This document shows positions 22,927 through 63,924 of a stretch of 64,000 bases of DNA, piece after piece (the stretch's first letter is position 1; each line of letters starts with the position of its first letter). A model generated the notes under the pieces. It worked only from the letters and a program-made list of their open reading frames with translations, searched no databases and was not told the DNA's origin. The position numbers and the translations under genes were made by a program. Location of the stretch: the NCBI GenBank assembly GCA_025999395.1, contig AP024682.1, positions 69,386 through 133,385 on the forward strand, in the 5' to 3' direction. Source of the stretch: Candidatus Parcubacteria bacterium. Its GTDB lineage: Bacteria > Patescibacteriota > Minisyncoccia > UBA6257 > JAGOQP01.

Positions 22927-23877
22927 TTATAATGAACAACCACTCGCTGATTTCCTTTGAGCTGGTGCTCCCAAACTACACCCTGAAGAAGGCTGCAGCA
23001 CCGGCGCCTGAAGAGAGCAGCCGCTGGCATTAGAATTATTAGAAGAAAGGTTAAGGGTAGCTAAGGGTCTGGCCACATTTTGAGCAAATCCTTGAGCGCT
23101 AGAAAACTTAGCCGAGAGAGCTACTCGCGGATCAACTTCTGAAAGTTTTTTCTTTTCAATTAAAAGAAAGTAGTCAGCTAACTGATTGTACTGATCAGGA
23201 AACCAAACAGAATTAAACTTAAGAGCTAAGTTATAAAGCTCATCATCAGAAAGCCCTTGTGCCACTCCCAAGGATAACACTCCCAGCATCGCCATTCCGT
23301 GATTACAATCAGCGAAACGAGCGCTGTTACCACAACAAGGCCGATAGATAGTAGCAGCAATTTCGGCTACTTTCTTTTGTTGATCAAGAGTAAGGTTTAG
23401 GATATTGTGTTTGGAAAAATGATCAGAGGCAGAACCCTTAGCCACAATCCAGCCGCCGACAGAAGCTAAATTTTCTAATTGCCCTCTTTCCTTGAGAGCT
23501 TTCAACTCAACAAGATATTGATTTTCTTGAGCTAATCCCAATCCCCAAAAAAGATTAAGGAAGGTTTGATTATTATCTGGAGTAATAACAATTTCTCCTT
23601 TCTCCACCGAAAGATTTCCAACCAAATTCTGATACTTTTCCAAATCAATTGTTCCTGTCTCAATTAGTTTTTGAGGAAAATCTTGTAAATCAAGGCCGGT
23701 TTTGAAGGTGTAGGTGTTTTCAGAAACTTTTTGTAAAGTATTATTTTCATTACTTATCTTTTGATTAGAACGAGCGGATTCTTTTTGGGTAGAGTAGGAA
23801 CCCAAATAAGCAATCCCCACCATTGCTATTGCCACCAAGACTACCCCTCCTAAAAAAGTTAGTATTTTGTCTTTCAT
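22927..23877 (-). CDS. membrane-anchored Cys-rich hypothetical protein with C-terminal SGCSL repeats
   Basis: 316 aa; N-terminal TM; conserved-looking PCCGNSARFADCNHG cluster; three SGCSL repeats at the C-terminus; first structural gene after csoR. Confidence 0.5.
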   Translation of the reverse strand: MKDKILTFLGGVVLVAIAMVGIAYLGSYSTQKESARSNQKISNENNTLQKVSENTYTFKTGLDLQDFPQKLIETGTIDLEKYQNLVGNLSVEKGEIVITPDNNQTFLNLFWGLGLAQENQYLVELKALKERGQLENLASVGGWIVAKGSASDHFSKHNILNLTLDQQKKVAEIAATIYRPCCGNSARFADCNHGMAMLGVLSLGVAQGLSDDELYNLALKFNSVWFPDQYNQLADYFLLIEKKKLSEVDPRVALSAKFSSAQGFAQNVARPLATLNLSSNNSNASGCSLQAPVLQPSSGCSLGAPAQRKSASGCSL

Positions 23878-24301: not shown

Positions 24302-25498
24302 TTAAGGATTTAAGTATTCAACCTGAACATTATCTATCCACAAAGTTCCTTCTTCTCCATCGTTGCCATAGAGATATAAAGAAACATCGTGATTATTTAG
24401 TTCCCAATCAGAAGTTAAACTAAACTCTTGGGTAATTTTATTCCATTCTTTCTTTTTGGGAACTACTTTGCTAGCAAGAGCTGTATCAAAAACATAAGCA
24501 TTTTGAGAATTAGACCAATGAAGTAAACCGAATTTAGCTAATTTATTTGGGTTATCAGTTTTAGCCATAAATTTTACTCGAACTATTGTTTGAGCTTTCC
24601 AGCCATAAGTAACACCGGGAATCTGCCAAGTTTGATAAATTTCTTGAAGCCGATGAGGATAACCAAACTGAGTGTTTTTATCTATAAATTCAATGCAACC
24701 AGAATTGCCTATTCCACAATTTGGAGAAAAATGACCATGATAGCCAATCGAGGAGTTAGGAACTGAGGAAAGATAACCAGTGGAAAATCCGCGAGTCGGC
24801 TGATAACTGCCATTTAAATTTGTATCCCAGCCGGGATTATAGGAATCGGAAAGATGATTAAGATTAGTATTAACCACTATATTTCCAGAAATATCCCCCT
24901 CGAAACCATCGTCTTTTTCTTCATAAGAATAATCATTTTTGCCTCCATCGGTTGAGGTTTTATCTTTTTCTCCCCCAAGAGTATATTTATCACTTTCGAG
25001 ATTGTTGGCTGAAATATAAAAATTGTTATTGCTATCTACCGAATAAACATAATAACTTTCTGATAAATCGCTATTTATCGGATCAACGGGTAAAGAATTT
25101 CCAATCGAGGAAGATAATTTATCAAAATCAATGGGAATCCAGCCGCTACCATCGGTTTTGAGTAGGTTTTCTTCAGAAACACAGCTATACGACCATCCTA
25201 AGGGAAGCTCGGGAAGCTTTAAATTACTACAAGTAGGAGAAGAATCAGGAAGAGAAACATAAACGGTGTTAGCGGCCCCCATTGATAAATTTCGAGAACT
25301 GTATTTAGCTTTAAGAAGATTAATTTCCAAATTTTTTATATCGGAAATTCTTTTGATGTCTCGAGATTCCTTTAAAATCTCGGCTGGATTTATCATCAAA
25401 ACAGTTCCACCTCCAAGAATTGCTAAAATCCCCATCACTATTAAAAGTTCTATCAAGGTAATAGACCTCTTCTTGCCTTCTTTAATAAAAAAATTCAT
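24302..25498 (-). CDS. type IV pilin-like protein (prepilin-type N-terminal helix) with large C-terminal domain
   Basis: 398 aa; N-terminus KKRSITLIELLIVMGILAILGG resembles a class III signal/methylation motif, although position -1 is not Gly; ~350-aa Ser/Asn/Tyr-rich C-terminal domain. Confidence 0.6.
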   Translation of the reverse strand: MNFFIKEGKKRSITLIELLIVMGILAILGGGTVLMINPAEILKESRDIKRISDIKNLEINLLKAKYSSRNLSMGAANTVYVSLPDSSPTCSNLKLPELPLGWSYSCVSEENLLKTDGSGWIPIDFDKLSSSIGNSLPVDPINSDLSESYYVYSVDSNNNFYISANNLESDKYTLGGEKDKTSTDGGKNDYSYEEKDDGFEGDISGNIVVNTNLNHLSDSYNPGWDTNLNGSYQPTRGFSTGYLSSVPNSSIGYHGHFSPNCGIGNSGCIEFIDKNTQFGYPHRLQEIYQTWQIPGVTYGWKAQTIVRVKFMAKTDNPNKLAKFGLLHWSNSQNAYVFDTALASKVVPKKKEWNKITQEFSLTSDWELNNHDVSLYLYGNDGEEGTLWIDNVQVEYLNP

Positions 25499-25510: not shown

Positions 25511-26314
25511 TTATACCACAAAGCCGGAGGAATTAGAAGAAATAGTTAATTGAAATAAATCAATGGTGTTTTTTAGAAGAATATTTTTTGTCTTCTCTAA
25601 ATCTAATTTCTTTATTTCGGATAAAGCAATCAAAACCTCATCCACAAAAGAAGGTTCATTTCTTTCCTTGCGATGATTAAGAGGAGAAACAAAAGGGGCA
25701 TCAGTTTCTAATAAAATTTTTTCCAAGGGAATAAATTTAATTATTTCATCAAATTGACGATTGTAAGTAATTAATCCATTAAAGGTAAAGGAAAAACCAA
25801 ACTCCAAAGCTTTTTCAGCTTCTTCTTTTCCACCAGTAAAAAAATGAAAAATTCCAGCATTTTCTAAAAGAAGATTTTTGTGGGCTTTTAAAATTTCAAG
25901 AGTTTCTTTAAACGCTTGCCGGCAATGAATAACTAAAGGCTTTTTTACCTTTCTGGATAATTCTAAGTGTTTCAGAAAAAGTTCTTTTTGAATTTCCAAA
26001 TTATTTCTATCCTCTTCTCTGTAGAAATCCAGACCACACTCTCCAATGCCAACTACCTTTTCATCACTGGCTAATTTTTCTATTTCATCAAATTTATCAA
26101 AATCTTTAACTTCGGTGGGATGAATACCTACCGTTGCCCAAAGACCAAGATAGCGATAAGCTAAATCAATTGATTTTTTTGACGATTCTAAATCGGCGCC
26201 GGCATTAATCATTCCAATTCCTTTGTTCAGAGATCTTTTAATAACTTCGTCTCGATCATCATCATATTGTTCAAATTGAACATGAGTGTGAGCATCAATA
26301 ATTTCGATTTTCAT
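25511..26314 (-). CDS. tatD: TatD-family metal-dependent hydrolase (DNase)
   Basis: 267 aa; N-terminal IDAHTH motif; follows metG as in many bacteria. Confidence 0.9.
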   Translation of the reverse strand: MKIEIIDAHTHVQFEQYDDDRDEVIKRSLNKGIGMINAGADLESSKKSIDLAYRYLGLWATVGIHPTEVKDFDKFDEIEKLASDEKVVGIGECGLDFYREEDRNNLEIQKELFLKHLELSRKVKKPLVIHCRQAFKETLEILKAHKNLLLENAGIFHFFTGGKEEAEKALEFGFSFTFNGLITYNRQFDEIIKFIPLEKILLETDAPFVSPLNHRKERNEPSFVDEVLIALSEIKKLDLEKTKNILLKNTIDLFQLTISSNSSGFVV

Positions 26315-31627: not shown

Positions 31628-33544
31628 TTAAGGTATAACTCTATCATATTTGGGAGGCAAATCGCTATCGCTTAACTCTCTTGAATCCAAAGATTTGAGG
31701 CTTATTTCAGAAACTTTTTCTGTAAAAGCATCGGTGGCGGATAAATTGGTTTTAGAAACAATAATAAAGCGATTATCTAGATTAAGAGAAGAGGGAACAA
31801 ATTCTACCTGAAAAACGGCCTGAGGGCTTTTTTCTACCACCCCCTTATTGGCTTCGATTAAGGGAATTTCCCAAGTAATTTCTTGAGTACGAGGGTTATA
31901 AACTGGAACCGTAGAAATATTGGTCTTTACTTTACCGGTCCATTTTACTCCCGTTCCCAAAAAAGAAGAGATTTTTATATCTTTAAAATCGGTGGCCCAA
32001 GTTTCCAAATCCCAATGAATAGTGTACTGAATAGGAACTCCAACTTTAGGAGGAAGAGAGCCTTGATTTACAATATCTGGGGAAGGCTCAAGGAAATAAG
32101 CTGATTGAGAAAGAAAAATTTGGCCACCAACCTTGTACTCTGCTTGAGCGGTTCCGGTGGTCTTAGGAGCCACGACATTATAAGGAACAGTAGGAGAAGA
32201 GATTTTTCCCTTTAATTGAAGGGTGAAGTTTTTATCCGCCAAACTTTCTACCGGATAAGAACTTAACAAGCCAATACTAAAACTAACCGATCCACCACTC
32301 CTAGCCTTAATTTCTTTCAAAAGAGGCAAATCAGTAGCGGTCCAAGTAATTTTTTTCTGAGTATCATCAAAATAACCCTTGGTTTTCAATGAAGAAAAAT
32401 TAAACATCTTTCCTTTTAATTCCACCTCCAAAATTACATCAGAGAAATTGATGTCGGCTTCATTATTAAAGGAAACCCTAAAGTTCAAATTTTGACCGGG
32501 AAAAACAATTTTATCTTTATTTTGACCTTCTAACTCTATTTTTAGACTTAAAGGCGAGGGGAGAAGAGAAATTGATAATTGTTTTTCTTCTATTGGATAG
32601 TATTTGTCCTTAATTTTTACTTTAGCAACAACTCCAAAAGGAAAGTAAGAATACTCCTCTCCTGATAAAAATCCAGAAATTAAAGCCGCTCTCTCCTGAG
32701 AAGGAGAAAGATTTTCTAAAATCAACTGATTTTTTTCTAATTGAGGCTCAGAACCTTGAAAGGAAAATTCTTTGGGAATTTGAAATTCTATGATTCCACT
32801 TAAAGGCTTAGAATCCTGATTTTGATAACGCAAAGAAACCTCAAATTCCTGACCATCCAAAACCTTCTCCGGACCAGTCAAATCAAGGCTTAAAACCGGT
32901 TCTCTTGCTAGCACCAAAAAACTTGCCTTTTTACTAAAGCGATTAGAAAGAGCCGAAGAAGGATAGGCGTAAGACAAAGAAGAATCAAACCGATAGGTTT
33001 GGAAAGGCTTTCCTATCAAAGCTACTTCAAACTCCTCTTTAACAATCTGAGAAGGAGCAATTTCCTTTAAATCCTTTTCGATTATTCGTTTTGATTCGTC
33101 TTCAAGATAAATAATTCCTTCGGGAAGAACCAAAGAAAGTTTGGGGCTAATTAAGGTTTTGCTTGAACTATTTTCAAAAACAACCGCCACCGTAAAAGAA
33201 GTTCCTACCAAGGCTTCACTGGGGGCTTTAATTTCCAACCCCGTCTCCTTCACTGAAAAATACTGATAAAGATAAAAGCCCGCGATACCAAAAAGCACCA
33301 CCGCCACCCCTATTAAAATCCAAAAAAGCCATCTCCCCCAGCGGATAACCCTTCCTAAATTATTCTGAGAAACTAATGGAGAAGGTTCTGACTTTTCAAC
33401 TTCTTTTATTTCCCAAGGATTTTCTAAGAAAACATCGGAGAAATCCTGGCTAGTTTCTTTTTTTGAAGAACTTTTAACCTCCTCCTTTTTTGAAGAAGGA
33501 GCTTTTTGACCATAGAGTTGTTTTTCTAAATCTTCCAGAGACAT
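31628..33544 (-). CDS. membrane-anchored hypothetical protein with repeated beta-rich extracellular domains
   Basis: 638 aa; acidic N-terminus, single TM at ~residues 70-95, then several ~100-aa repeat-like segments (DUF11-like feel); no catalytic motif. Confidence 0.45.
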   Translation of the reverse strand: MSLEDLEKQLYGQKAPSSKKEEVKSSSKKETSQDFSDVFLENPWEIKEVEKSEPSPLVSQNNLGRVIRWGRWLFWILIGVAVVLFGIAGFYLYQYFSVKETGLEIKAPSEALVGTSFTVAVVFENSSSKTLISPKLSLVLPEGIIYLEDESKRIIEKDLKEIAPSQIVKEEFEVALIGKPFQTYRFDSSLSYAYPSSALSNRFSKKASFLVLAREPVLSLDLTGPEKVLDGQEFEVSLRYQNQDSKPLSGIIEFQIPKEFSFQGSEPQLEKNQLILENLSPSQERAALISGFLSGEEYSYFPFGVVAKVKIKDKYYPIEEKQLSISLLPSPLSLKIELEGQNKDKIVFPGQNLNFRVSFNNEADINFSDVILEVELKGKMFNFSSLKTKGYFDDTQKKITWTATDLPLLKEIKARSGGSVSFSIGLLSSYPVESLADKNFTLQLKGKISSPTVPYNVVAPKTTGTAQAEYKVGGQIFLSQSAYFLEPSPDIVNQGSLPPKVGVPIQYTIHWDLETWATDFKDIKISSFLGTGVKWTGKVKTNISTVPVYNPRTQEITWEIPLIEANKGVVEKSPQAVFQVEFVPSSLNLDNRFIIVSKTNLSATDAFTEKVSEISLKSLDSRELSDSDLPPKYDRVIP

Positions 33545-39396: not shown

Positions 39397-40587
39397 ATGT
39401 TTAACTTTTCTTCTATCTGGGTAAACTGGGTGACAACTATCGCAGTTGCGATTGTTGTCGCCATCCTGCTGGCCAGAGCGGTGCGACTGTTAGCCACAAG
39501 GAAACTCGACATACTTCGTGGAACCTCGGGATTTATCCTCGGATGGGTCCTGTCGCTCACTCTCTCGGGTATGCTAGTTGGCATCGCTTTGCTGGTTGCC
39601 AAGAAGCAGTTACCAGAAGACTTACCAATTGTGACTCGACTTGCTCTGTTCTTCTCTTGGATACTCGCATCAGTTGGTCTTGCTACTATTATGATGTATA
39701 AATGGTACAAGACCTACCCACCAACTCCGCCGTTCAAACTCGCTTTCAAATTTCTCGGCAACTACATACGATCCGGACACAAGATTGCGCTCTACGAAGG
39801 GGGTAATTGGTTCTTGCCTCCCCTCAAGTGGTTACTGACCCCAGTGAAGATATTTCTAGGAAACAGAGAGTTCGAATACAAGATCAAAGGGGTGATGACA
39901 AACGATCAGGTTACATCTGACATCAGCAAGAGATGGCGATACCGCTTAGACGAAGAAAATCTAAGTGCTTTTCTTTTTGTTTGTGGAGAGGTGGATGATG
40001 AAGTTGGAGACGCTCAATTTAAGAAATTCGAAGACTTTCTTGAAGAGGAAGGAGCTCAGGGGGTGAGAGAGGTTGTCGCTAATCCGAACGTTGATCCCCA
40101 CACTTGGGATCAACTCAAGCCTTCTGGAGAGACGCTTGTAGGAGCAACTCTCTGGAAGATTCTCAATGGTGGAGACATGAGAAATGCAGATAAGACAACT
40201 GTTGAAGCACGAGTAGCAGATGCTTTAGCAAAAATGCGCTCTTCTCAAGCTAAAGTGGATCGGTACGGTATCATCATCTTGGACGGCAAAGTCGCGGAAG
40301 TCGATACTGACCCAGATGTGGTAAGAGCAGCCAAGCAAAAAGTTGTTCGCACCAAGGAGTTAGAGGCTGAGAAAGACGCGCAGAACATCGCCTTAGCGAA
40401 CACACTAGCTCAGGCCAGAGGCGTCCGCAAGGCCTTTCCCGGTGCGAGCGACGAAGCCAGGATGAACTTTCTCCAGCGAATCCTCCACAAAATCCCCGGA
40501 GAAGTAAACACCACTGAGATTCAGGGCGGAGCGATCCCTCTCATTAACATCTCAGCCCCAACAAAAACAAAGAAAGGAGGTAGATAA
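39397..40587 (+). CDS. SPFH/band 7 (stomatin/flotillin/HflK-like) domain membrane protein, GC-rich
   Basis: 396 aa; 3-4 N-terminal TM helices; SPFH core (VMTNDQVTSDISKRWRYRLDE ... YGIIILDGKVAEVDTDPDVVRAAKQKVVRTKELEAEKDAQ, the latter matching the WGIKV..VEIKDI..P..I..AM..Q..AEREKRA consensus); Ala-rich coiled-coil tail. GC far above the window background by eye. Confidence 0.7.
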   Translation: MFNFSSIWVNWVTTIAVAIVVAILLARAVRLLATRKLDILRGTSGFILGWVLSLTLSGMLVGIALLVAKKQLPEDLPIVTRLALFFSWILASVGLATIMMYKWYKTYPPTPPFKLAFKFLGNYIRSGHKIALYEGGNWFLPPLKWLLTPVKIFLGNREFEYKIKGVMTNDQVTSDISKRWRYRLDEENLSAFLFVCGEVDDEVGDAQFKKFEDFLEEEGAQGVREVVANPNVDPHTWDQLKPSGETLVGATLWKILNGGDMRNADKTTVEARVADALAKMRSSQAKVDRYGIIILDGKVAEVDTDPDVVRAAKQKVVRTKELEAEKDAQNIALANTLAQARGVRKAFPGASDEARMNFLQRILHKIPGEVNTTEIQGGAIPLINISAPTKTKKGGR

Positions 40588-41093
40588 TGACTAACAAACC
40601 AGCATTTTCCGATAAGACTCGAGAGTGGGGGAAAAAAATGATGACCGCTGCCATTATTATTGCCTCACTCTCGGTCGTGCTCGGGATTTTTTGGAGCGGC
40701 GGCGGAAAAAAGCAGGCTACCGTCACCGCCGTCAGGCAATCGGTGGTCGTCGGTTTTGGCGAAGCCAAAACCGTCGACCTCCGCCAGGGCCCCGTGGAGG
40801 TCACCCTCCTCTTTACTGAGGAGGGGTGGATGGATTTTTGGGGTGATGATCGCCCAGGGAACTGGGTGAAAATCACCCCGGAGAACCACAAAGGGCCGGC
40901 GCTTCTCGTTCGCGCTGGCGAGTACCTCCCTCTTCCAAGAGCGAAGGGAATGTACAGGTTTAAAGTTGAAGGAAATTGTCAAATCACGTTTTGGCTCCAC
41001 CGCTTGGACGATAATGTTCCTCCAGGCGGTGTCCCTACATCACCAACACCACGTACACCACTACCTCAACCTAAATTAGCATCGCACATATAG
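40587..41093 (+). CDS. small membrane-anchored beta-rich protein, possible NfeD-like partner of the SPFH protein
   Basis: 168 aa; start overlaps the upstream stop (TAATGA); one N-terminal TM then a soluble beta-rich domain and Pro-rich tail; same high GC. Confidence 0.45.
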   Translation: MTNKPAFSDKTREWGKKMMTAAIIIASLSVVLGIFWSGGGKKQATVTAVRQSVVVGFGEAKTVDLRQGPVEVTLLFTEEGWMDFWGDDRPGNWVKITPENHKGPALLVRAGEYLPLPRAKGMYRFKVEGNCQITFWLHRLDDNVPPGGVPTSPTPRTPLPQPKLASHI

Positions 41094-41130: not shown

Positions 41131-41191
41131 TGTTAGTTCATTAATTCTAGTTAAGACCAATTTTTCAGAACAACAAATACAAATAAAAAAC

Positions 41192-41221
41192 AAAAAGCTG
41201 CTTGATAAAAGCAGCTTTTTG
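41192..41221. terminator. bidirectional hairpin terminator between the SPFH cassette and the paralog array
   Basis: AAAAAGCTGCTT-gataa-AAGCAGCTTTTT is a 12-bp perfect stem flanked by A/T runs, 25 nt downstream of the minus-strand gene 41247..41630. Confidence 0.7.
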
Positions 41222-41246
41222 TAACTTTTGTAAAAATTAATCTTTT

Positions 41247-41630
41247 TTACATCAATCCTCCTCCGGAAGAAAGCGATCTTTGGACAAAATAAACAATGGT
41301 GTAGGAAAGAAGTCCAACCGCAATTCCAATCACTGCATACATCAACATTTTTTTGGCTGTGCCAACCTTCGTTTGATCTCCTTTACTGGTGACGAAGTTG
41401 TAAGCCGCCAAAATAATAAACAGCGTAGCAACGATGAAAAGAATAGTGTAAATCCATTGCACAATCTTAACAAAGACTCCTACTCCCTCACCAATTGTTG
41501 TTGGACCAGTTACTGGCACTGGTGGAGGAGGGGGTTGACCGGGAGTAAACTGAGCAAGAGCAACTAAAGAACCAGTTATTCCCCAAACCAGCAAAAGAGT
41601 GCTAGCACCTAATAAAATCTTTTTAATCAT
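41247..41630 (-). CDS. paralog 1 of 7: small secreted two-helix membrane protein (VirB2/TrbC-pilin-like architecture)
   Basis: 127 aa; signal peptide; Pro-rich variable segment (GQPPPPPVPVTGP); conserved C-terminal module ILAAYNFVTSKGDQTKVGTAKKMLMYAVIGIAVGLLS. Confidence 0.6.
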   Translation of the reverse strand: MIKKILLGASTLLLVWGITGSLVALAQFTPGQPPPPPVPVTGPTTIGEGVGVFVKIVQWIYTILFIVATLFIILAAYNFVTSKGDQTKVGTAKKMLMYAVIGIAVGLLSYTIVYFVQRSLSSGGGLM

Positions 41631-41730
41631 AGTTATTTTTTATTCTCTTTTAGTTATTTTTTATTCTCTTTTATAAACGACCTTTCTTAAAAATTAATTT
41701 TAACTTACTTTGAAATTGTAGCATATTTTT

Positions 41731-42123
41731 TTAAAAAAGGAAGAATCTCATCTGCCCAGAACCCTCTAACAAGAAGTTTTGTATTAAAATTGAAATGCCC
41801 CCCGACATTAAAGCGACAACGATTGCCACAATCGCCCACTTAATCTGATTTTTGGCGTTTTTAACTTTTGTTTCATCTCCTCGGGAAAAAACAAAGTTGT
41901 AGGCTGCTAGAATAATAAACAAAACCGCCACTAAAAAGAAAAAGGTATAAACATAGCCAATAATTCGATAAATCATCAGCCAAATCTGGTTTGGAGCCTC
42001 TATTGGTGAGCCAGTAATATTTTGAGGACCCTGGGGAGTAAATCTAGCCGCTTCTGTCAATAACAGATATCCCCAAAAAAACACGAGGAAAAATATTGAA
42101 ATAAGCTCTTTTTTGTTTTTCAT
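41731..42123 (-). CDS. paralog 2 of 7: small secreted two-helix membrane protein
   Basis: 130 aa; signal peptide; variable N-region; conserved module ILAAYNFVFSRGDETKVKNAKNQIKWAIVAIVVALMSGGISILI. Confidence 0.6.
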   Translation of the reverse strand: MKNKKELISIFFLVFFWGYLLLTEAARFTPQGPQNITGSPIEAPNQIWLMIYRIIGYVYTFFFLVAVLFIILAAYNFVFSRGDETKVKNAKNQIKWAIVAIVVALMSGGISILIQNFLLEGSGQMRFFLF

Positions 42124-42149
42124 AAAAAATATTAATATAGACCTTCTTT

Positions 42150-42563
42150 TTAAGAGGCGGCGGAAAGAAAGCTTCCAATAATAAGAGAAATTCCTCCCGA
42201 CACCAAAGCGACAATAATTGCGATCACCGCATATTTAATTTGAGCTTTGGCTGTTTTTAATTTGTTTTCATTAGTCCCTCCTGTCAAAAAATTATAAGCC
42301 GCTAAAATCAAGAAAAGAATAGCGACAACAAAAAAGGTGTCGAAAATAACAATTACAATATTGTAAACTAAATCGTAAACATCTTCATAATGTTTTAAGG
42401 GAGAGGCTTGCTCTATTTCACGAGGTACAATATTAATATCCTGGGGTTTAATAATAGCCTTTACTTTATTTGCATATGAGACTAAAAGATAGAAAGAAAT
42501 AATCGCCCAAGAAAGAAGTTTGTCTTTTTTTTCTAAGAAAAAATTCATAAAAATAAAAAACAA
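42150..42563 (-). CDS. paralog 3 of 7: small secreted two-helix membrane protein
   Basis: 137 aa; conserved module ILAAYNFLTGGTNENKLKTAKAQIKYAVIAIIVALVSGGISLIIGSFL. Confidence 0.6.
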   Translation of the reverse strand: MFFIFMNFFLEKKDKLLSWAIISFYLLVSYANKVKAIIKPQDINIVPREIEQASPLKHYEDVYDLVYNIVIVIFDTFFVVAILFLILAAYNFLTGGTNENKLKTAKAQIKYAVIAIIVALVSGGISLIIGSFLSAAS

Positions 42564-42575
42564 AATTTTAATTTA

Positions 42576-43001
42576 TTATGAACCAGCTTTTTCAAGAAAA
42601 GAACCAATAATCAAAGAAACACCACCCGATATTAATGCCACCACAATTGCAATCACCGCATACTTAAGTTGAGACTTAGCTTTTCTTAATTTATCCTCAT
42701 TAGTACCGCCAGATAAAAAGTTATAAGCCGCCAAAAGAATAAACAAAATAGCCGCGGCGCCAAAGGCCATATAGATGTAATTTACAATGCTTACAATTAC
42801 ATTCTCCACAAACTTATAAGCATCTGCTTCACTACCTGTTACCACTGACTGCTCCTTGAAAGGAGCAATGGTTTTTTCATCAAGAGCAGCAAAGGCAATC
42901 ATATTTCCGAAAAATAAAAAGAAAAAGAAAAAAGCTAAACCATTCTTCAATAAAAGATGGAGAGAAGCCTTTTTTGTTTTTTTTAGGAACTCTTTTCTCA
43001 T
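42576..43001 (-). CDS. paralog 4 of 7: small secreted two-helix membrane protein
   Basis: 141 aa; conserved module LLAAYNFLSGGTNEDKLRKAKSQLKYAVIAIVVALISGGVSLIIGSFL. Confidence 0.6.
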   Translation of the reverse strand: MRKEFLKKTKKASLHLLLKNGLAFFFFFLFFGNMIAFAALDEKTIAPFKEQSVVTGSEADAYKFVENVIVSIVNYIYMAFGAAAILFILLAAYNFLSGGTNEDKLRKAKSQLKYAVIAIVVALISGGVSLIIGSFLEKAGS

Positions 43002-43044
43002 AAGCCTCTATAAAAAAATAACTCCTAATTCTTGATTAATCAAC

Positions 43045-43428
43045 TCAACTTCCCGCTGATTGAAGAAAGCTTTTGATAATAAGAGAGACTCCTCCCGCTA
43101 CCAAAGCAACAACAATGGCAACAACCGCAAATTTCAATTGGTTTTTTGCTTGCTCAACTAACTTTGCGTCCTGCCCTGCCCTTAGATAAGTAAAAGCAGC
43201 CCATAGTATTGCGCCCACCGCCGCTATAAAGAAGATCGTGTACATATAACCAACAATTCTTTGAAGAACACCGATAATATCATTAACACTTTTTATTGGG
43301 GAATCAATTTGGTCATTATTTTGGTTATTATTACTATCCGCCCCATAAACAGAAAAAGCTCCCAACAAACCCAAAGCCAACACTATTAAAAGGTAATAAG
43401 CTCTTTTAAGATAGAAAGTCTTCTTCAT
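43045..43428 (-). CDS. paralog 5 of 7: small secreted two-helix membrane protein
   Basis: 127 aa; Asn/Gln-rich variable N-region; conserved module WAAFTYLRAGQDAKLVEQAKNQLKFAVVAIVVALVAGGVSLIIKSFL. Confidence 0.6.
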   Translation of the reverse strand: MKKTFYLKRAYYLLIVLALGLLGAFSVYGADSNNNQNNDQIDSPIKSVNDIIGVLQRIVGYMYTIFFIAAVGAILWAAFTYLRAGQDAKLVEQAKNQLKFAVVAIVVALVAGGVSLIIKSFLQSAGS

Positions 43429-43466
43429 ATTCTAAATACTAACATCTTAATTTTAAAAAGTAAAAA

Positions 43467-43865
43467 CTAAGGCAAAACCTGTTCTACTTTAGATGAATCT
43501 ATTCCCAAAATTTCAGCCAAGATATAAATAATTCCACTAGAAATTAAAATCACTACCGCTCCAATAGCAGCGTAGGTGAGAGTTTTTTTGCCTTGTTTAA
43601 ATTTATTTTCATTATCTCCCGCGGTAAGCATTTGAAAACCGCCAATCAAAAACATAATTGTTAAAATTGGCATCGAAACTTTAATCATATAGTTAATGGT
43701 ATCTTTAAGAATGGTAGAAAAGGTTCTCCCTCCCAAGGGATTGTGCAATTCCACAGTTTCGCTTCCGCTATCAGCAGGACCCCCGGGTTGACCTCCGCTT
43801 TGAGCAAAAGAATTCTGCGCTTTTAAAACAAAAAAAAGAAAAATCCAAAATAATTTTTTAATCAT
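43467..43865 (-). CDS. paralog 6 of 7 (divergent): small secreted two-helix membrane protein
   Basis: 132 aa; Gly/Pro-rich variable N-region; module FQMLTAGDNENKFKQGKKTLTYAAIGAVVILISSGIIYIL. Confidence 0.55.
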   Translation of the reverse strand: MIKKLFWIFLFFVLKAQNSFAQSGGQPGGPADSGSETVELHNPLGGRTFSTILKDTINYMIKVSMPILTIMFLIGGFQMLTAGDNENKFKQGKKTLTYAAIGAVVILISSGIIYILAEILGIDSSKVEQVLP

Positions 43866-43923
43866 AAAAATTTAATTTGAAAAATTATATCACTTATTCT
43901 AAAAAATAAAAACTTTTTTGTGC

Positions 43924-44367
43924 TTACTTTTGAATATTTAAAAATCCCACTAAAGTATCAACAATTAGCCAAGCCCCAAAAGCAATCAATAAAGCAATTA
44001 TAACCGACCTGATATAATCCTTTCCCTTAGAAAAGCGAGACTCGTTTCCTGCCGAAGTCATCATCAAAAATCCTCCCACAATAATCCAAATAACCCCTAC
44101 CGGCAAAGCAATATAAAACAAAGCAAACTGAATAATTCTGTCGACCATCACCCAGAAATGAGGAAAGGTGCAGTAAACCCCATTATATCCGCAAGGAACC
44201 AGACCTTCGTTGCTACTGCACTCAAGTCTGGAGTTTTCATCACAAGGAACCGCCAAAACACTCGAGGAAAAGATACTAAAAAAAGCCAATAGTACTGGGA
44301 GAAAAAGAAAAATTTTTTTGGGGAAAGAAAAAAGATTCATCTTTTTCTTTATTTTAATTGAAAACAA
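43924..44367 (-). CDS. paralog 7 of 7 (most divergent, Cys-rich N-region): small secreted two-helix membrane protein
   Basis: 147 aa; mature N-region has 5 Cys (PCDENSRLECSSNEGLVPCGYNGVYC); module FLMMTSAGNESRFSKGKDYIRSVIIALLIAFGAWLIV. Confidence 0.5.
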   Translation of the reverse strand: MFSIKIKKKMNLFSFPKKIFLFLPVLLAFFSIFSSSVLAVPCDENSRLECSSNEGLVPCGYNGVYCTFPHFWVMVDRIIQFALFYIALPVGVIWIIVGGFLMMTSAGNESRFSKGKDYIRSVIIALLIAFGAWLIVDTLVGFLNIQK

Positions 44368-44383
44368 TAAAAATAAGCAAGAA

Positions 44384-45697
44384 CTACTTTCGGTAAAAAT
44401 AATTAATTTCTGTTTCCGCAGCCTTTAGAGCTTGCCTTCTTTGAATTTTTCCGGAAAGAACATCAGAGATGGTTTTTTTCAAAACCTCTCTTATAGCTGG
44501 ATAATTAGCTTTGGGCCACGTCTTGGCAATCAGAAAACCCTTCAGAAAGGGAGCGTTCTCCTGCTCTAACCCTTGATTGATAAGAGATTTTAAGGCTGGA
44601 AGATGGTTAGCTGTCTGTAAATACTGGCTATATAAAGTAGGATTGGTAACAAAAAACTTAATAAAATGCCAAGAAACATAAGGATTGGGAGATTGAGCCG
44701 AAACCCCTAACCCCCAATAATCAGCTAAATTCGCTTGGCGAGAAAAACTCGCTCCCTTTATCTGAGGAAGAGGAGCCACTCCAAAATTCAAGAAGGGATT
44801 TTTTTCTTTTATCTTAGCTAAAGAGCTGTAAAAATCGATCATCATCGCTAATTTTCCAGCCGCAAAAGCAGACAGAGAATCTTCTAAGCCTTCATTCCAA
44901 GTATAGTAAGGATTGAGAGGATCAGAAAACTGGAGATAAAAATCAAAAGCTTTTTGAGCATTGGCATCAAAAGAAATTCCTCCTTCCGAAGAAGCAATTG
45001 GGGATCCGGATTGAATCATTAGCAAAGTTAAAATTTCGGGGGCGTTATTGATGTTAACAGAAGTACCCAAAGCAATGGCCGGCACAGAAATTTTTTTACT
45101 TTCATCAAGCTCTCTTATCTTTAAAACATCATCTAAAACTTCTTCCCAATCAGAAGGAGGAAAAACAACTCCTTTGGCACTAAAAATATCTTTGTTATAA
45201 ATTAAAGCCAAGGAATCCAAATAAAGCGGCAGAGCATAAACATTGTTTGATAAAACAAAATCCTTAAAAACCACCTCCGGATAAATTTGAGAGACCAATT
45301 GAGGAGTGATAACTTTAGCGGGCGCTGGCCTCAACTTTCCCCAATTTTCATTCACCCAAGAAGAGTGGACCATAAAAATATCAGGCCCCCTTCTTTCTGC
45401 CAAAGCATTAACTAATTCTTTCTGATAAGCCTCGGGATCATCAAACTTAAAATAACGAATTTCCACATTTTTGTAGAGGTTCTTGTAAGCCTGAATAACC
45501 CCCTCAAAGGCGCTCGCTGGATCTCCCATCCCCCAAATAGTTAATTGAACTTTGCCGGTGGGAAAATCAGGATCGCCGCTTACCTGTCCCTTCTTTTGAA
45601 AAATGGGTAAAATCCCAACAGCTCCCAAAACAATTACAAGAATTATAAAGAATCCAATCCCGAGAATAATAATTTGATTTTTATCAAAAGCGGGCAT
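44384..45697 (-). CDS. membrane-anchored extracellular solute-binding protein (ABC-type SBP family 1-like), orphan
   Basis: 437 aa; N-terminal TM anchor; MalE-like SBP fold features; no adjacent permease or ATPase genes; 16-bp gap to paralog 7. Confidence 0.6.
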   Translation of the reverse strand: MPAFDKNQIIILGIGFFIILVIVLGAVGILPIFQKKGQVSGDPDFPTGKVQLTIWGMGDPASAFEGVIQAYKNLYKNVEIRYFKFDDPEAYQKELVNALAERRGPDIFMVHSSWVNENWGKLRPAPAKVITPQLVSQIYPEVVFKDFVLSNNVYALPLYLDSLALIYNKDIFSAKGVVFPPSDWEEVLDDVLKIRELDESKKISVPAIALGTSVNINNAPEILTLLMIQSGSPIASSEGGISFDANAQKAFDFYLQFSDPLNPYYTWNEGLEDSLSAFAAGKLAMMIDFYSSLAKIKEKNPFLNFGVAPLPQIKGASFSRQANLADYWGLGVSAQSPNPYVSWHFIKFFVTNPTLYSQYLQTANHLPALKSLINQGLEQENAPFLKGFLIAKTWPKANYPAIREVLKKTISDVLSGKIQRRQALKAAETEINYFYRK

Positions 45698-59839: not shown

Positions 59840-60961
59840 CTAAGAAGATCTAATTGGCATTACAATGTAAACAAAAGTTTGATCTCCCACCGCTTTAATT
59901 AAACTGGCTTTTTCTTCTCCATTTAATCCCCAAAAAATCTCTTCTGACTTAAAATTTTTAATTCCATCTAGTAAAAATTTCCAGTTAAAAGTAATTTGAC
60001 TAACACTACCTTTAATTTTAGCGGGTAAAAGATATTCATTTTCTCCAAATTCTGAACTAGAAGAGGAAATTTTTATATTTTTTAAATTATCACTAACCTC
60101 AAAACGGACCTCGTTTAGGCGATTAGAAAAAGAGCTGGTGAGTTTTAAAGCATTAATAAAATCCTCTTTTTCCAAAACAATTTCTGTTTCAAAGGATTTA
60201 GGAATTACCATCTCATAATCCGGAAAATTTCCTTCTATTAAGCGAGAAATAATTGAGGTTTGTTGAGTTTCGAAAAGAACCTGATTTTCTTCGAAAAAGA
60301 TTTTGATATTTCCTTCCTTTAAAGAGGAAAAAATTTTAATCACTTCTTGAATAGTTCTTAAAGGAATAATAAAAGAAACCTCTTTTTCTAATTGAGTCTC
60401 AAATTTTTTAGTAGTAATTGTTTTTTCTGCTAATCGAAAACTATCAGTAGCCACCAACTTAATTTGGTTATCTTTAAAAGAAAAAAAGACTCCGGAAAGT
60501 TCGGGACGAAATTCTGAAGTTTGGCAAGCAGGAACAACATAAAGCAAGCTTTCTATAAAGACACCACTTTCAATAGTAAAAAAGTTGTTCTTTCTTCTTT
60601 CTACTTGAGGGATAATTGGATAATCGTCTTTAGGAACGGTAGTGATTCGAGCTTTGTAATTATCGGTACTTATTAGTAAATTTCCCTTTTTAAGTTCTAA
60701 ATTTACCCTTTCAAAAGAGAGATTATTAATGATTTGAGAAAAAATTTGATAAGGAATTACTACTGATCCCCCCTCAATATTTTTACTAGAAACAAAGTGA
60801 GTAATTCCAATTTCTAAATCAGTAGCCGACATTTTTAATCCTCCGTCAGTTGTTTCTAAAAGAAAATTCTTTAAAACCGGAAGATTACTAGATTCTTTTC
60901 TAGCTCCTGAAATTATCGATAATCCTTCTTTTAAATTAGTTTTTAGTGCGACAACATTCAT
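59840..60961 (-). CDS. dnaN: DNA polymerase III beta sliding clamp
   Basis: 373 aa; three-domain beta-clamp pattern; located immediately downstream of dnaA. Confidence 0.9.
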   Translation of the reverse strand: MNVVALKTNLKEGLSIISGARKESSNLPVLKNFLLETTDGGLKMSATDLEIGITHFVSSKNIEGGSVVIPYQIFSQIINNLSFERVNLELKKGNLLISTDNYKARITTVPKDDYPIIPQVERRKNNFFTIESGVFIESLLYVVPACQTSEFRPELSGVFFSFKDNQIKLVATDSFRLAEKTITTKKFETQLEKEVSFIIPLRTIQEVIKIFSSLKEGNIKIFFEENQVLFETQQTSIISRLIEGNFPDYEMVIPKSFETEIVLEKEDFINALKLTSSFSNRLNEVRFEVSDNLKNIKISSSSSEFGENEYLLPAKIKGSVSQITFNWKFLLDGIKNFKSEEIFWGLNGEEKASLIKAVGDQTFVYIVMPIRSS

Positions 60962-61119
60962 ATCTTCTTCTATTGCTTTAATTATAAAGATAGTAGTAGT
61001 TTTAGTTAGGTTTGTGTTTTTTGGGGAAAATTTATTCTAACTAATTAAGACCTTTGTTTTTTTTAATTCTGATTTTTTATAAGGTGGGGAAGGGTTGTTG
61101 ATTGACTGGGGAAAAGAAA

Positions 61120-62493
61120 TTATCCGGATGAATTGTTTTTATAAATCATTTCTTTAATAATTGAAATTTTTTGGCTTAAAGCTTTATCTTTTATTATTTC
61201 TTTAGAAATTTTTTCATAAGAATGAATGGCGGTGGTGTGGTCTCTTTTTCCCATCTTATCCCCAATGTCTGGGTAAGACATCCCCAGCATATCCCTCATT
61301 AAAAACATTGCGATTTGACGGGGAAGAACCACTTCTTTTCTCCGGGATTTATTAATTAATTCGTTTTGGTTAATTTCAAAGAATTGACTAACTGCTTTAA
61401 TGATTTGTAAGGGATTGATAGCAACAGCGCTTTGTTGAATAACTGAATTGATTATTTCTTCGGCGGTTTTTAAATCAATGTTATTAGTTCCCTTAAATTC
61501 CTGATAAAAATGGAGTTTATTGATAATTCCCTCAATTTCTCTAACACTTCTCTGAAGTTTGGAAGCAATGAGGTGACAAATGTTGTCAGCTAATTCAATT
61601 CCTTTTTCTAAGGTTTTGTTTTTAATAATTGCCAATCTCATTTCATAATCTGGGTAAGTAATATCAGCAATCATTCCTCCCTCAAAGCGGGAACGCAACC
61701 TTTCCTCTAAGGTTGAAATAGCAGAAGGGGGACGATCGGAAGAAATGATAATTTGTTTGTTATTTTGATAAAGAAGATTAAAAGTGTGAAAGAACTCTTC
61801 CTGACTTCTTTCTTTTCCTCCAATAAATTGAATATCATCAATAATTAAAACATCTACTGAGCGGTACTTATTTTTAACATCCTCCATTCTTTTAGAACGA
61901 ATAGCCCAAACCACATCATTAACAAATTTTTCTGAAGGAACATACTTTACTTTAATTTGGTTGTTGTAATTTTTTACAATTTCATTTCCAATTGCTTGAA
62001 TTAAGTGGGTTTTTCCTAAACCCGTACCCCCATAAACAAAAAAGGGATTATACTTTTTTCCTACCGCTTTAGTAATTGCTACTGCTGCTGTATAAGCTAA
62101 TTCATTAGAAGAGCCAACAACAAAATTTTTAAAAGAATAGCGAGGATGAAGGTTGGTTTCGGGATCGGTATTAATTTGAGCAATTTCCTTTTGAGGAAAA
62201 TGATTGGCTATTGGCTTTTGAAAACCATCTTCTTCTTTGTTTTTAGAAATTACCACGTATTCTACTCGACTAATTGAGCTATCGATTTCCTGAAGAGCTT
62301 CCAAAATGATTTTGTGATATTTAGTTTGAATCCATTCTTTAGAGAAAGTGTTGTTAACTCCTACAATTGCTACTCCGGTTTCGTCGTTTTTGTCGAGAAG
62401 ACAGCTATTTTTAAACCAAGTTAAAAAGTTTGGTTTTGAAATTTGTAGCTCTATTGAAGCAAGTACCTTTTCCCAAACTTTTTTTAATTCCAT
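61120..62493 (-). CDS. dnaA: chromosomal replication initiator DnaA
   Basis: 457 aa; AAA+ Walker A GGTGLGKTHL; C-terminal DNA-binding domain with the basic loop and helix. Confidence 0.95.
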   Translation of the reverse strand: MELKKVWEKVLASIELQISKPNFLTWFKNSCLLDKNDETGVAIVGVNNTFSKEWIQTKYHKIILEALQEIDSSISRVEYVVISKNKEEDGFQKPIANHFPQKEIAQINTDPETNLHPRYSFKNFVVGSSNELAYTAAVAITKAVGKKYNPFFVYGGTGLGKTHLIQAIGNEIVKNYNNQIKVKYVPSEKFVNDVVWAIRSKRMEDVKNKYRSVDVLIIDDIQFIGGKERSQEEFFHTFNLLYQNNKQIIISSDRPPSAISTLEERLRSRFEGGMIADITYPDYEMRLAIIKNKTLEKGIELADNICHLIASKLQRSVREIEGIINKLHFYQEFKGTNNIDLKTAEEIINSVIQQSAVAINPLQIIKAVSQFFEINQNELINKSRRKEVVLPRQIAMFLMRDMLGMSYPDIGDKMGKRDHTTAIHSYEKISKEIIKDKALSQKISIIKEMIYKNNSSG

Positions 62494-62881: not shown

Positions 62882-63223
62882 ATGTTGCCCTCTAAATATC
62901 GCCTTTCCACTTCTTTTTTTAAAGAAATAGCTCAACAAGAAAGAAAACCCGATCAAATTGTTTCCTCGAAATATTTTTCCGCAAAGATTTATTTTTCCCG
63001 AAACGATTTTTCTCGATTTGCAGTAGTAGCTAACTCCTCTTCCTTTAAAAAGGCGGTTTTGAGGAATCGCTTAAGAAGAATTGTTTATGAAATTTTAAGG
63101 AAAGGGGATTTTTTTAAAAAACCTGGATTGGATGTAGTGGTGGTTCTTAGGCCTCAAGCTTCCTTCTTAAATCAGGAAACCAGAAAAGAATTGGAAGAGG
63201 AAATTAAGAAAATCTTTTCTTGA
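62882..63223 (+). CDS. rnpA: ribonuclease P protein component
   Basis: The track ORF starts at TTG 62873; ATG at 62882 is the more likely start; RNR motif region LRNRLRRIVYE; synteny rpmH-rnpA-yidC. Confidence 0.85.
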   Translation: MLPSKYRLSTSFFKEIAQQERKPDQIVSSKYFSAKIYFSRNDFSRFAVVANSSSFKKAVLRNRLRRIVYEILRKGDFFKKPGLDVVVVLRPQASFLNQETRKELEEEIKKIFS

Positions 63224-63261
63224 ATTAGAATTAGAAAAATAATTAAGTCTTAATTTTAACA

Positions 63262-63924
63262 ATGAGCTATCTTTTTAATGAATTTCTTTACCGCCCCCTT
63301 TTAAACCTTTTGTTTTTTCTTTATGACTTTGTTTGGAGTGATTTGGGGGTAGCCATTATTCTTTTAACAATTTTGGTAAGATTGTTGCTTTTGCCGCTTT
63401 TTTATAAAAGCGCTCAAAGTCAATCGGTTCTTCAAAAAATTTCTCCTCAAATTAGAGAGATCCAAAAAAAATATAGAGACGACAAAGAAAAGCAAGTTCA
63501 AGAAATGTTGGCGGTTTATAAGCAACACAAGGTTAATCCCTTTTCTGGTTTTTTGTTGATGATTATTCAGTTGCCTATTTTAATTGCCCTTTATAAGGTT
63601 TTTTGGGGAGGTTTTTCGGCGGAGATTTTAAAAAATCTTTATTCCTTTATTGAAATCCCCCAAGATATTAGTTATTCTTTTTTGGGGGTAGTTAATCTTA
63701 ATCAAAGAAATTTGATTTTGGTGATTTTAGCGGCCCTCTTCCAATATTTTCAGTCAAAGCTTTTACTGGATTTGAGTAAAAACAAAAAAGAAAAAAGAGT
63801 TCTCCAAAATCAAGAAAAGTCAGGTTCTTCTCAGGAATTAGCAGAAAAATTTTCCCGACAGATGATTTTTCTTTGGTCCCTTCTTAACTTTAATTATTCT
63901 TTATCCCTTACCTTCGGCAATTAG
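63262..63924 (+). CDS. yidC: membrane protein insertase YidC (short form); apparent frameshift near 63865, with the C-terminus continuing in another frame to the window end
   Basis: The N-terminal TM region and the KQHKVNPFSGFLLMIIQLPILIALY region match YidC. The YidC C-terminal signature (PLPSAISLYWLTTSVFSVIQQ) is encoded in the +1 frame after a T-run. Confidence 0.8.
   Translation: MSYLFNEFLYRPLLNLLFFLYDFVWSDLGVAIILLTILVRLLLLPLFYKSAQSQSVLQKISPQIREIQKKYRDDKEKQVQEMLAVYKQHKVNPFSGFLLMIIQLPILIALYKVFWGGFSAEILKNLYSFIEIPQDISYSFLGVVNLNQRNLILVILAALFQYFQSKLLLDLSKNKKEKRVLQNQEKSGSSQELAEKFSRQMIFLWSLLNFNYSLSLTFGN

Follow-up and report, generated by a model that had tools for sequence, protein, structure and literature searches.

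The question raised by this locus is what seven small, closely packed genes in the Parcubacteria MAG KatS3mg098 encode, and whether they represent a freely diversifying family or a set of distinct parts. The DNA analysed was a 64-kb stretch of that genome (the window), for which a sequence-only reading had proposed VirB2/TrbC-type pilins, with an undescribed secreted two-helix system as an alternative. The ORF listing of the window contains seven minus-strand ORFs, of 127–147 aa each, that together span positions 41247–44367, exactly at the coordinates and lengths first read. They are named here in gene order, from p7 at the head of the array to p1 at its end.

43924..44367, minus strand: pilin-like gene p7, first gene, with 4 Cys in a Cys-rich mature N-region
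43467..43865, minus strand: pilin-like gene p6, second gene, with an NPLG motif ahead of helix 1 and GGFQMLTA within helix 1
43045..43428, minus strand: pilin-like gene p5, middle copy, N-region Asn/Gln-rich
42576..43001, minus strand: pilin-like gene p4, middle copy
42150..42563, minus strand: pilin-like gene p3, middle copy, ORF start codon TTG
41731..42123, minus strand: pilin-like gene p2, middle copy
41247..41630, minus strand: pilin-like gene p1, last gene, 100 bp from p2 and followed by a strong terminator

The genes are separated by 58 (p7–p6), 38 (p6–p5), 43 (p5–p4), 12 (p4–p3), 26 (p3–p2), and 100 bp (p2–p1), in agreement with the 12–100 bp spacing initially given. Gene callers prefer an ATG at 44340 as the start of p7 (138 aa) and use an ATG at 42548 for p3 (132 aa). 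The locus is organized as gyrA, a solute-binding protein (SBP), the array, a small membrane protein with an SPFH gene, and xerC, and the array is origin-proximal, with dnaA ~17 kb off. Pairwise identity among the seven paralogs is 20–46%, and the middle copies p3–p5, originally taken for close duplicates, are only 34–46% identical (p5 and p4, 42%), the best pair (p3 and p4) having 46% identity overall and 62% only over the C-terminal module.

All seven paralogs possess three hydrophobic segments based on hydropathy, one signal-like at the N-terminus and two farther along, and their alignment displays variable N-regions followed by a conserved module (...ILAAYNF, a loop with an invariant Lys, and a second helix), so that the signal-like segment, variable region, and two-helix module first described are seen in every copy. 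The one invariant Lys is found where helix 2 begins, just past the predicted loop. A Sec signal peptide is predicted from hydropathy (basic n-region and hydrophobic h-region) and from A-x-A-type ends conserved among orthologs (ALA or FA, each followed by Q). The AF2 model of p1 has a signal helix at residues 3–25, disorder at 26–44, and a helical hairpin at 45–81/86–123 (pLDDT ~84), and the hairpin typical of the VirB2/TrbC superfamily is seen both in this model and as two C-terminal hydrophobic segments in 7/7 paralogs. No VirB2 or TraA structure occurred among the fold-search matches listed, in a non-specific search that matched generic helical hairpins equally, and a PDB sequence search returned no match for the pilins.

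The Pfam family PF18895 (T4SS_pilin) is matched by all seven paralogs, five of them above its gathering score (26.6 bits), and is also the top Pfam family for the other two. The scores, together with those for PF04956 (TrbC/VirB2; gathering score 27.9 bits) and for one NCBIfam model (NF045849; equivalog cut-off 40 bits), are as follows.

p1: PF18895 1.3e-8, 35.2 bits, above cut-off
p2: PF18895 3.1e-8, 34.0 bits, above cut-off; NF045849 34.1 bits, below 40
p3: PF18895 2.7e-5, 24.6 bits, just under cut-off
p4: PF18895 1.3e-7, 32.0 bits, above cut-off
p5: PF18895 2e-5, 25.0 bits, just under cut-off; PF04956 2e-4, 21.8 bits
p6: PF18895 4.1e-11, 43.2 bits, above cut-off; PF04956 7.9e-6, 26.5 bits
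p7: PF18895 9.8e-7, 29.2 bits, above cut-off; PF04956 11.6 bits

The PF04956 gathering score is reached by none of the seven, and p1–p4 lack any match to that family. Among family members, PF18895 is the top match in 78/78 and PF04956 is matched by 36/78 (E<0.01; best 3.2e-8), a weak but recurrent similarity that supports homology at the level of the superfamily and not membership in PF04956. A homolog is named ‘pilin [Patescibacteria group bacterium]’ by NCBI. The profile search against Pfam that had been proposed thus returned two pilin families, and the VirB2/TrbC-type idea has gained support from PF18895 (7/7), from PF04956 (weakly, in 3/7), and from homologous arrays located beside VirB4, VirB3/PrgI, and VirB6 genes. 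The alternative of an undescribed two-helix system is not supported, as the family is curated in Pfam and such arrays are already in print (PMC12102498, PMC10633639, PMC12857230).

Profile searches of the 64-kb window identified no VirB4, VirB6, VirB3, or TrsD gene, with nothing returned for VirB4 at E<10, which agrees with the absence of neighboring T4SS ATPase or channel genes noted in the first reading, and ~7 kb beyond the right end of the window in a sister strain also contained no T4SS machinery genes. A wider profile search for VirB4 was dominated by Saccharimonadia proteins. The linkage is present in other genomes. In Saccharimonadia-type loci, among them L041, a complete genome, arrays adjoin VirB6/TrbL-like and PrgI/VirB3 genes. 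Such adjacency is seen in L035–L047, L065, L074, L078, and L084, and in the last four a VirB4 ATPase and a TrsD-like gene are present as well; JGI labels homologs of this ATPase ‘type IV secretory pathway VirB4 component’. Such linkage bears directly on whether the seven could instead be unrelated small membrane proteins with compositional Pfam matches and no tie to type IV secretion. The PF18895 scores are modest (24.6–43.2 bits), hydrophobic two-helix proteins draw weak matches to many membrane families, and the fold search did not discriminate, yet PF18895 is the top family for every one of the 78 relatives, the profile at E<=1e-10 retrieves 70,090 cluster representatives, and the loop motif and Lys are conserved beyond plain hydrophobicity. 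Because homologous arrays are embedded in T4SS gene clusters, this reading is nearly refuted and hardly credible.

As has been reported previously, 441 VirB2 arrays of 2–11 genes occur in 383 Patescibacteria assemblies, with a mean identity of 25% and a maximum of 54%, and VirB4 is found in 2,417 of 3,035 assemblies (Quiñonero-Coronel 2025, PMC12102498); arrays of divergent pilin genes in Patescibacteria were also described in Wang 2023. Under the published definition of a ‘VirB2 array’ (2–11 PF18895/PF04956 genes, in tandem or with one non-pilin gene between; PMC12102498), the seven tandem PF18895 genes of this Parcubacteria MAG are such an array, their 20–46% identity fits the published range, and, as these arrays have been described since 2023, the present one adds a typical further case rather than a novel type of system. 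It shares with the described arrays (the Southlakia epibionticum ML1 T4SS locus, the ‘Sec-secreted array’ of TM7x, and the 441 arrays) the same Pfam family (PF18895 with or without PF04956), the tandem, same-strand organization, low within-array identity, a monoderm host, and an origin-proximal position. It differs in not adjoining virB4, virB6, or prgI and in its Parcubacteria/Paceibacteria-type host, whereas VirB2 arrays are commonest in the Microgenomatia and Saccharimonadia (PMC12102498).

Related arrays possess p7-type, p6-type, middle, and p1-type genes in this order, with clear best-hit margins. Orthologs of p7 hold the first position (40–54% identity) in a subfamily with the Cys pair LVxCG...C[T/N][F/W/Y], and the first gene has at least two Cys in 63/65 arrays. 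The second position is held by orthologs of p6, a subfamily defined by the NPLG motif, while the middle copies range in number from 1 to 4 among genomes. The last position is held by orthologs of p1 (55–68% identity), the most conserved subfamily, with the motif PGQxPxP...TGP...WIYTIIFIVAVLFILLAAF/YNFITSKGD, and a Wolfebacteria protein is ~80% identical to p1. Based on this fixed order, the array looks like a set of specialized subunits, and the suggestion of a freely diversifying paralog family is not supported, as the first, second, and last genes have clear positional orthologs across genera.

Orthology of these three positions across genera, with distinct conserved motifs at each, points to old, non-redundant roles and is difficult to reconcile with a repertoire of interchangeable major pilins maintained for antigenic or host-range variation. 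Such a repertoire would be consistent with the low within-array identity, the changing number of middle copies, and the variable N-regions, and tandem virB2/trwL paralogs in Bartonella and Anaplasma have been cited as a precedent, with the same suggested for Patescibacteria (PMC12102498). The tandem amplification and divergence of a T4SS pilin gene is indeed shared with Bartonella Trw and Anaplasma phagocytophilum virB2/trwL; those systems, however, are Gram-negative and host-cell-targeting, with copies read as variant major pilins, unlike the specialized subunits suggested by positional orthology here. Strain variation can also be read in favor of a repertoire, as a recombination tract of ~2.7 kb over SBP-p7-p6-p5 differs among strains (87.6–97.5% nucleotide identity) between flanks that are 100% identical, but most of the differences within p6 and p5 are conservative substitutions in or around the helices and signal peptide, leaving the Gly-rich and Asn/Gln-rich N-regions nearly unchanged, and those in the SBP are mostly synonymous (3 non-synonymous versus 28 synonymous). 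In Southlakia epibionticum a pilin array inside the T4SS cluster is essential (PMC10633639), a further hint against interchangeable paralogs, and a variation cassette is considered unlikely.

The preferred explanation, considered likely, is that the products of the seven genes are pilin-like members of the VirB2/TrbC superfamily (PF18895), belong to the chromosomal T4SS common to most Patescibacteria, and act as ordered, non-equivalent subunits. The precursors would be exported by Sec, with the signal peptide cut at an A-x-A-type site, and the mature pilin would be a membrane-embedded helical hairpin whose two helices are joined by a short loop containing Lys. A VirB4-powered, MPF-FATA-like T4SS, presumably encoded elsewhere in the KatS3mg098 genome, would then extract the subunits and polymerize them, giving a pilus-like filament or conduit on the cell surface for host-cell contact. 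Judged from conservation and position, the first-position pilin p7, with its disulfide-type Cys pair, is a candidate minor or tip subunit and p1, which comes last, is the most conserved, and is set apart by a spacer of its own and a strong terminator, is a candidate for a major subunit, between which would fall the second-position, NPLG-containing p6 and the lineage-variable middle copies p5–p2. According to reviews, no T4SS pilus of this type has been visualized in any Patescibacterium (PMC12857230, PMC11665869).

Compared to the VirB2/TrbC/TraA pilins (PF04956), the paralogs share a predicted signal peptide and a pair of hydrophobic helices connected by a short basic loop, with ~100 aa in the mature protein, and cyclization is not evidenced for those in the window. 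The sequence-only reading put the inter-helix loop as longer than that of classical VirB2. The Gram-negative representatives have one gene where there are many paralogs here, and the present host is a monoderm with a predicted MPF-FATA-like machinery, a type normally without pilins. The best NCBIfam match for 7/7 paralogs is the Mycoplasma ICE Mbov_0395 pilin-like protein (NF045849), to which the same two-helix module aligns, all with scores under the cut-off of 40 (19.7–35.7 bits); the Mycoplasma host is likewise a monoderm, with an MPF-FATA-type system. The Mbov_0395 gene is a single gene in a mobile ICE and not a chromosomal array. The resemblance to T4P operons, which have several small pilin genes with distinct roles (major, minor, and tip) and in some cases a Cys pair, is an analogy only, as the families are unrelated: p1–p7 have no match to PF07963 (N_methyl) even at E<=1, and neither a class III prepilin signal nor an N-methylation motif is visible in their sequences. 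A separate N_methyl protein is present at 24302–25498 in the window.

The array is preceded by the SBP.

44384..45697, minus strand: membrane-anchored family-1 (sugar-type) SBP, Pfam SBP_bac_1 2e-26 and SBP_bac_8 1e-20

The nearest solved relative is a trehalose/maltose-binding protein (1eu8; 6e-20). With a stop only 16 bp upstream of the p7 ORF, the SBP is probably co-transcribed with the array. Far from being an unrelated ‘orphan’ neighbor, as it first appeared, the SBP accompanies such arrays as a conserved partner, with a homolog as the same-strand upstream neighbor in 41/49 comparable loci (gaps mostly −4 to +50 bp), while arrays in 17 Saccharimonadia loci occur without an SBP; the 80 loci surveyed were picked by similarity to p1 and are not an unbiased sample. 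The descriptions of VirB2 arrays consulted here mention neither the SBP, probably operonic here, nor the order p7, p6, middle copies, and p1, both of which extend the known picture.

The partnership could suggest that the two-helix proteins are non-filament membrane partners of the SBP in an uptake or sensing complex, with or without a T4SS. The short or overlapping gaps are in keeping with this, as are locus L084, where the SBP follows an array adjoining VirB4-TrsD-PrgI-VirB6, the lack of a recurrent ABC permease or ATPase among the 30 neighbor-gene clusters listed, and the speculation in reviews (PMC12857230, PMC11665869) that Patescibacteria might use their T4SS to take up material from the host. 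The homology of the proteins is to pilins, however, and not to transporter subunits, the Saccharimonadia arrays do without an SBP, the loci were selected as noted, and adjacency may reflect conserved order near gyrA, although the SBP stays adjacent where its upstream neighbor changes; a complex of this kind is therefore very unlikely. A combined possibility, doubtful at present, is that the SBP and the ordered pilin set form one module in Paceibacteria-type and related Patescibacteria, in which a T4SS-assembled surface filament, encoded apart from the T4SS ATPase and channel genes, would work together with the SBP to capture or import host-derived molecules. If true, this would be a pilus-linked uptake device and not a conjugation or effector-export pilus.

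Three further elements may be placed at the end of the array.

41715..41723, minus strand: extended -10-like motif TGCTACAAT (TGnTAnAAT) upstream of p1, read from the sequence
41630..41673, minus strand: perfect 21-bp tandem duplication (TRF 2.1 copies, 100% identity) that abuts the p1 start codon
41190..41222, both strands: bidirectional intrinsic terminator, 14-bp stem (5 G-C pairs), T-runs on both strands

The motif TGCTACAAT is a possible internal promoter for p1. The claim that the last gene has its own extended -10 promoter stands as far as the presence of the motif, but an equally good one, TGATATAAT, lies ahead of p6 in the p7–p6 spacer, and a consensus promoter scan called neither. 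The bidirectional terminator is confirmed and closes both the array and a convergent plus-strand gene pair. The perfect duplication in the 5′ spacer of p1 was likewise recovered and, based on the six metagenomic strains compared, is a strain polymorphism, the p2–p1 spacer being 100 bp in L001, L002, L003, and L006 and 79 bp in L004 and L005.

The seven small minus-strand genes that the sequence-only reading had placed at 41247-44367 coincide exactly with the following ORFs, numbered p1 to p7 by coordinate, transcribed from p7 to p1 and encoding proteins of 127-147 aa:
41247-41630, minus strand, p1, ORF, last of the array
41731-42123, minus strand, p2, ORF
42150-42563, minus strand, p3, ORF
42576-43001, minus strand, p4, ORF
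43045-43428, minus strand, p5, ORF
43467-43865, minus strand, p6, ORF
43924-44367, minus strand, p7, ORF, first of the array
From p7 to p1, the spacers measure 58, 38, 43, 12, 26, and 100 bp. The perfect 21-bp tandem duplication (41630-41673) and the bidirectional terminator at the end of the array (41190-41222) are both real, with the duplication present in some strains and absent from others. The extended -10 promoter proposed ahead of the last gene stands in part: the motif TGCTACAAT does occur upstream of p1, but a similar TGATATAAT lies upstream of p6, and a consensus promoter scan called neither of the two.

All seven proteins have three hydrophobic segments, an N-terminal signal-like segment and two later helices parted by a short polar stretch; their alignment bears out the conserved C-terminal module and holds one invariant lysine just past the loop. 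Pairwise identity within the array is 20-46%, and the description of paralogs 3-5 as close duplicates was an overstatement because the best pair, p3-p4, reaches 62% only in the C-terminal module. In the AF2 model of p1, a signal helix leads through a disordered linker into a helical hairpin (pLDDT about 84). Fold searches with this simple hairpin were unable to discriminate it. A PDB sequence search with the seven-paralog profile returned no relative, only chance matches to membrane proteins (E ≥ 0.1).

PF18895 (T4SS_pilin) is the top Pfam match for all seven paralogs, with five over the gathering threshold and two just under, while p5, p6, and p7 also match PF04956 (TrbC/VirB2) under its threshold. 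The best NCBIfam match for each of the seven, below the cut-off, is the “Mbov_0395 pilin-like conjugal transfer protein” of a Mycoplasma ICE. A search of the protein database with the seven-paralog profile yielded 108 relatives, nearly all pre-annotated with PF18895 and one carrying the NCBI name “pilin [Patescibacteria group bacterium]”; the window pilins are on record as KatS3mg098_102...108 [Candidatus Parcubacteria bacterium]. PF18895 is matched by every one of the 78 aligned family members and TrbC/VirB2 by 36 of the 78 (best E-value, 3e-8). The proteins p1-p7 almost certainly belong to the PF18895 pilin-like family. The first-ranked PF18895 match in all seven profile searches supports the VirB2/TrbC-type pilin reading, and the alternative offered with it, an undescribed secreted two-helix system, is unsupported in view of the Pfam family and the published VirB2 arrays. 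Clustered at 50% identity, the family is very large: 117,642 cluster representatives match its profile at E ≤ 1e-3, and 70,090 still do so at E ≤ 1e-10. At the top of these matches (P0229-P0250) stand single ORFs, 350-1,775 aa long with 3-17 pilin modules, which represent genuine fusions of tandem pilins or else arrays that gene calling has read through (e.g., in recoded lineages).

[quoted passage not shown] Such pilin arrays had been described earlier by Wang et al., and Quiñonero-Coronel et al. 2025 (PMC12102498), using PF04956 and PF18895 as queries against 3,035 Patescibacteria genomes, reported 441 “VirB2 arrays” in 383 assemblies, with 2-11 pilin genes and a mean identity of 25% (maximum, 54%). 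The window array agrees with this description in every tested respect and is therefore a further example of the known array type, adding no new category. What goes beyond the published picture is confined to two leads, the positional orthology of the subunits and the partnership with a solute-binding protein (SBP).

A scan of GTDB species representatives provided 80 loci, none of them from the source genome itself; they were picked by similarity to p1, so fractions drawn from them are not unbiased. Tandem arrays of 2-8 pilin genes were present in nearly all of the 80 loci (iterated HMM) and recurred in two contexts. The Saccharimonadia type, seen in 18 loci (one of them the complete genome L041), has the order [VirB4 ATPase - TrsD-like] - PrgI/VirB3 - VirB6/TrbL-like - array - HSP20 - ComF-like, with gene identities checked via Pfam, NCBIfam, and database names, and with VirB4 and TrsD visible in the four loci that reach far enough. 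Because the arrays in these loci adjoin T4SS genes, the pilin family is physically tied to the T4SS. The window type has the order MBL-fold protein - GyrA - SBP_bac_1 - array - (small membrane protein and SPFH-like protein, convergent) - XerC/D and occurs in MAGs labelled Paceibacterota, Wolfebacteria, Microgenomatus, Moranbacteria, Terry-, Brenner-, Lipton-, and Harrisonbacteria, as well as in some labelled “uncultured Saccharibacteria”.

The window is origin-proximal and of housekeeping character, with gyrA, ftsH, pnp, recA, ftsK, and clpB present along with:
59840-62493, dnaN and dnaA, about 17 kb from the array
62882-63924, rnpA and yidC, at the right end of the window
T4SS components in Paceibacteria are often origin-proximal (PMC12102498); the near-origin T4SS content of the window is the pilin array only, without virB4. 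Annotation of the 64-kb window found no VirB4, VirB6, VirB3, or TrsD, and a VirB4 profile had zero matches across it at E < 10, confirming the earlier observation that no T4SS ATPase or channel genes are nearby. The approximately 7 kb past the right end, as seen in a sister strain, contain no T4SS gene and encode PolA, a 412-aa protein, a DksA-like protein, and a Mg-chelatase-family AAA+ protein. As VirB4 was found in 2,417 of the 3,035 published Patescibacteria assemblies (about 80%; PMC12102498), a T4SS is likely encoded elsewhere in the source genome. When the protein database was searched with a VirB4 profile, the 120 matches listed were exclusively Saccharimonadia sequences.

Two minus-strand ORFs of the window, 15650-17911 (753 aa) and 31628-33544 (638 aa), were rejected as candidates for VirB4 or VirB6, having neither a Pfam match nor a VirB4-profile match; one product is secreted with a signal peptide and the other membrane-anchored, and they are possibly surface proteins of no recognised family. 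The 398-aa protein encoded at 24302-25498 (minus strand) has a type IV pilin N-methylation motif (PF07963) and is part of a separate T4P-type system unrelated to the array; for its neighbours (22927-23877 and 25511-26314), no Pfam matches were reported.

Best-hit analysis against the window paralogs places the p7 ortholog first, the p6 ortholog second, and the p1 ortholog last in related arrays, with large bit-score margins for these three assignments, while the middle consists of one to four copies unassignable among p2-p5; lineage-specific members look to be confined to these middle copies. Ortholog alignments reveal a Cys pair in the p7 subfamily (LVxCG...C[T/N][F/W/Y]), NPLG and GGFQMLTA motifs in the p6 subfamily, and, in the p1 subfamily, PGQxPxP...TGP and a nearly invariant helix 1. 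At least two Cys occur in the first gene of 63 of 65 arrays, those of the Saccharimonadia included. Together, the ordered orthology and the subfamily motifs suggest that the arrays are ordered sets of non-equivalent, old, non-redundant subunits, which would argue for a heteromeric filament or major and minor pilin roles and against simple antigenic variation. Within such a set, the candidate for a minor or tip subunit would be p7; p1, with the highest conservation, a spacer of its own, and a strong terminator behind it, would be the candidate for the major subunit.

At some loci, the first gene or another array member encodes a Cys-rich fusion of 418-912 aa (19-34 Cys) with a pilin module at its end, as in these array proteins with a pilin-profile match:
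L055, 7943-9499, large Cys-rich protein
L057, 7943-9490, large Cys-rich protein
L028, 4177-5433, large Cys-rich protein
L025, 5800-7176, large Cys-rich protein
L085, 5733-8471, large Cys-rich protein
The profile match is apparently through the C-terminal two-helix module, and the remainder of each protein could be an extracellular, adhesin-like domain fused to the pilin.

Directly upstream of p7 lies the gene for a sugar-type family-1 SBP with an N-terminal membrane anchor (44384-45697, minus strand), whose nearest relative among solved structures is the trehalose/maltose-binding protein 1eu8. Of the 49 loci whose upstream flank is visible and which lack T4SS genes, 41 have an SBP gene immediately upstream of the array in the same orientation. 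The SBP-array gaps are mostly -4 to +50 bp, and the adjacency is kept despite changes in the gene upstream of the SBP (e.g., gyrA, an FtsH-size gene, or a methyltransferase). In these loci, selected by p1 similarity, the pattern suggests that a sugar-type SBP is a near-constant operon partner of arrays outside the Saccharimonadia. The link is absent from PMC12102498, including two supplementary files, and from the other literature searched; it fits the speculation that the T4SS serves uptake from the host. At locus L084 (MAG_140, Patescibacteria group bacterium; 2562-~11700), VirB4, TrsD-like, PrgI/VirB3, VirB6, five pilins, and an SBP_bac_1 homolog are clustered, with the SBP homolog directly after the array that adjoins VirB4-TrsD-PrgI-VirB6; this is the only bridging locus seen with both T4SS machinery and SBP beside the array. 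Overall, p1-p7 would make up the ordered pilin-like subunits (PF18895) of a Patescibacterial T4SS, probably co-expressed with the sugar-type SBP, with assembly by a T4SS whose genes lie elsewhere; this full mechanism is favoured with moderate confidence.

The same seven-gene array is found in at least six metagenome assemblies. Nucleotide identity to the strains represented by L002 and L006 is 100%, where covered, in gyrA and from p4 through to the SPFH-like gene, versus 97.5% for the SBP, 96.6% for p7, 87.6% for p6, and 92.5% for p5. This variable stretch (43045-45697; compared with L002, L004, and L006), about 2.7 kb long, has the appearance of a recombination tract. Strain differences in the SBP are 28 synonymous and 3 non-synonymous, and those in the pilins are mostly conservative and in or around the helices and signal peptide, a pattern more in line with allele import than with strong diversifying selection acting on exposed regions.

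On the other side of the array, the slot before xerC is occupied by:
39397-41093, plus strand, SPFH/Band_7-like gene (396 aa), then a gene for a 168-aa membrane protein
The GC content of the pair is 0.48 and 0.535 versus 0.31-0.42 in the array genes, SBP, gyrA, and xerC, and the pair is absent from strain L004. Horizontal acquisition of p1, which adjoins the GC-rich block, was considered and rejected, since its GC3 of 0.34 falls among the values of the other array genes and positional orthologs of p1 exist. In many relatives, the array-xerC slot contains a gene pair of similar size; a BLAST of the window's pair against the nine closest relatives found almost no similarity (one weak 26% SPFH match), and the slot appears to be replaced or very fast-evolving.
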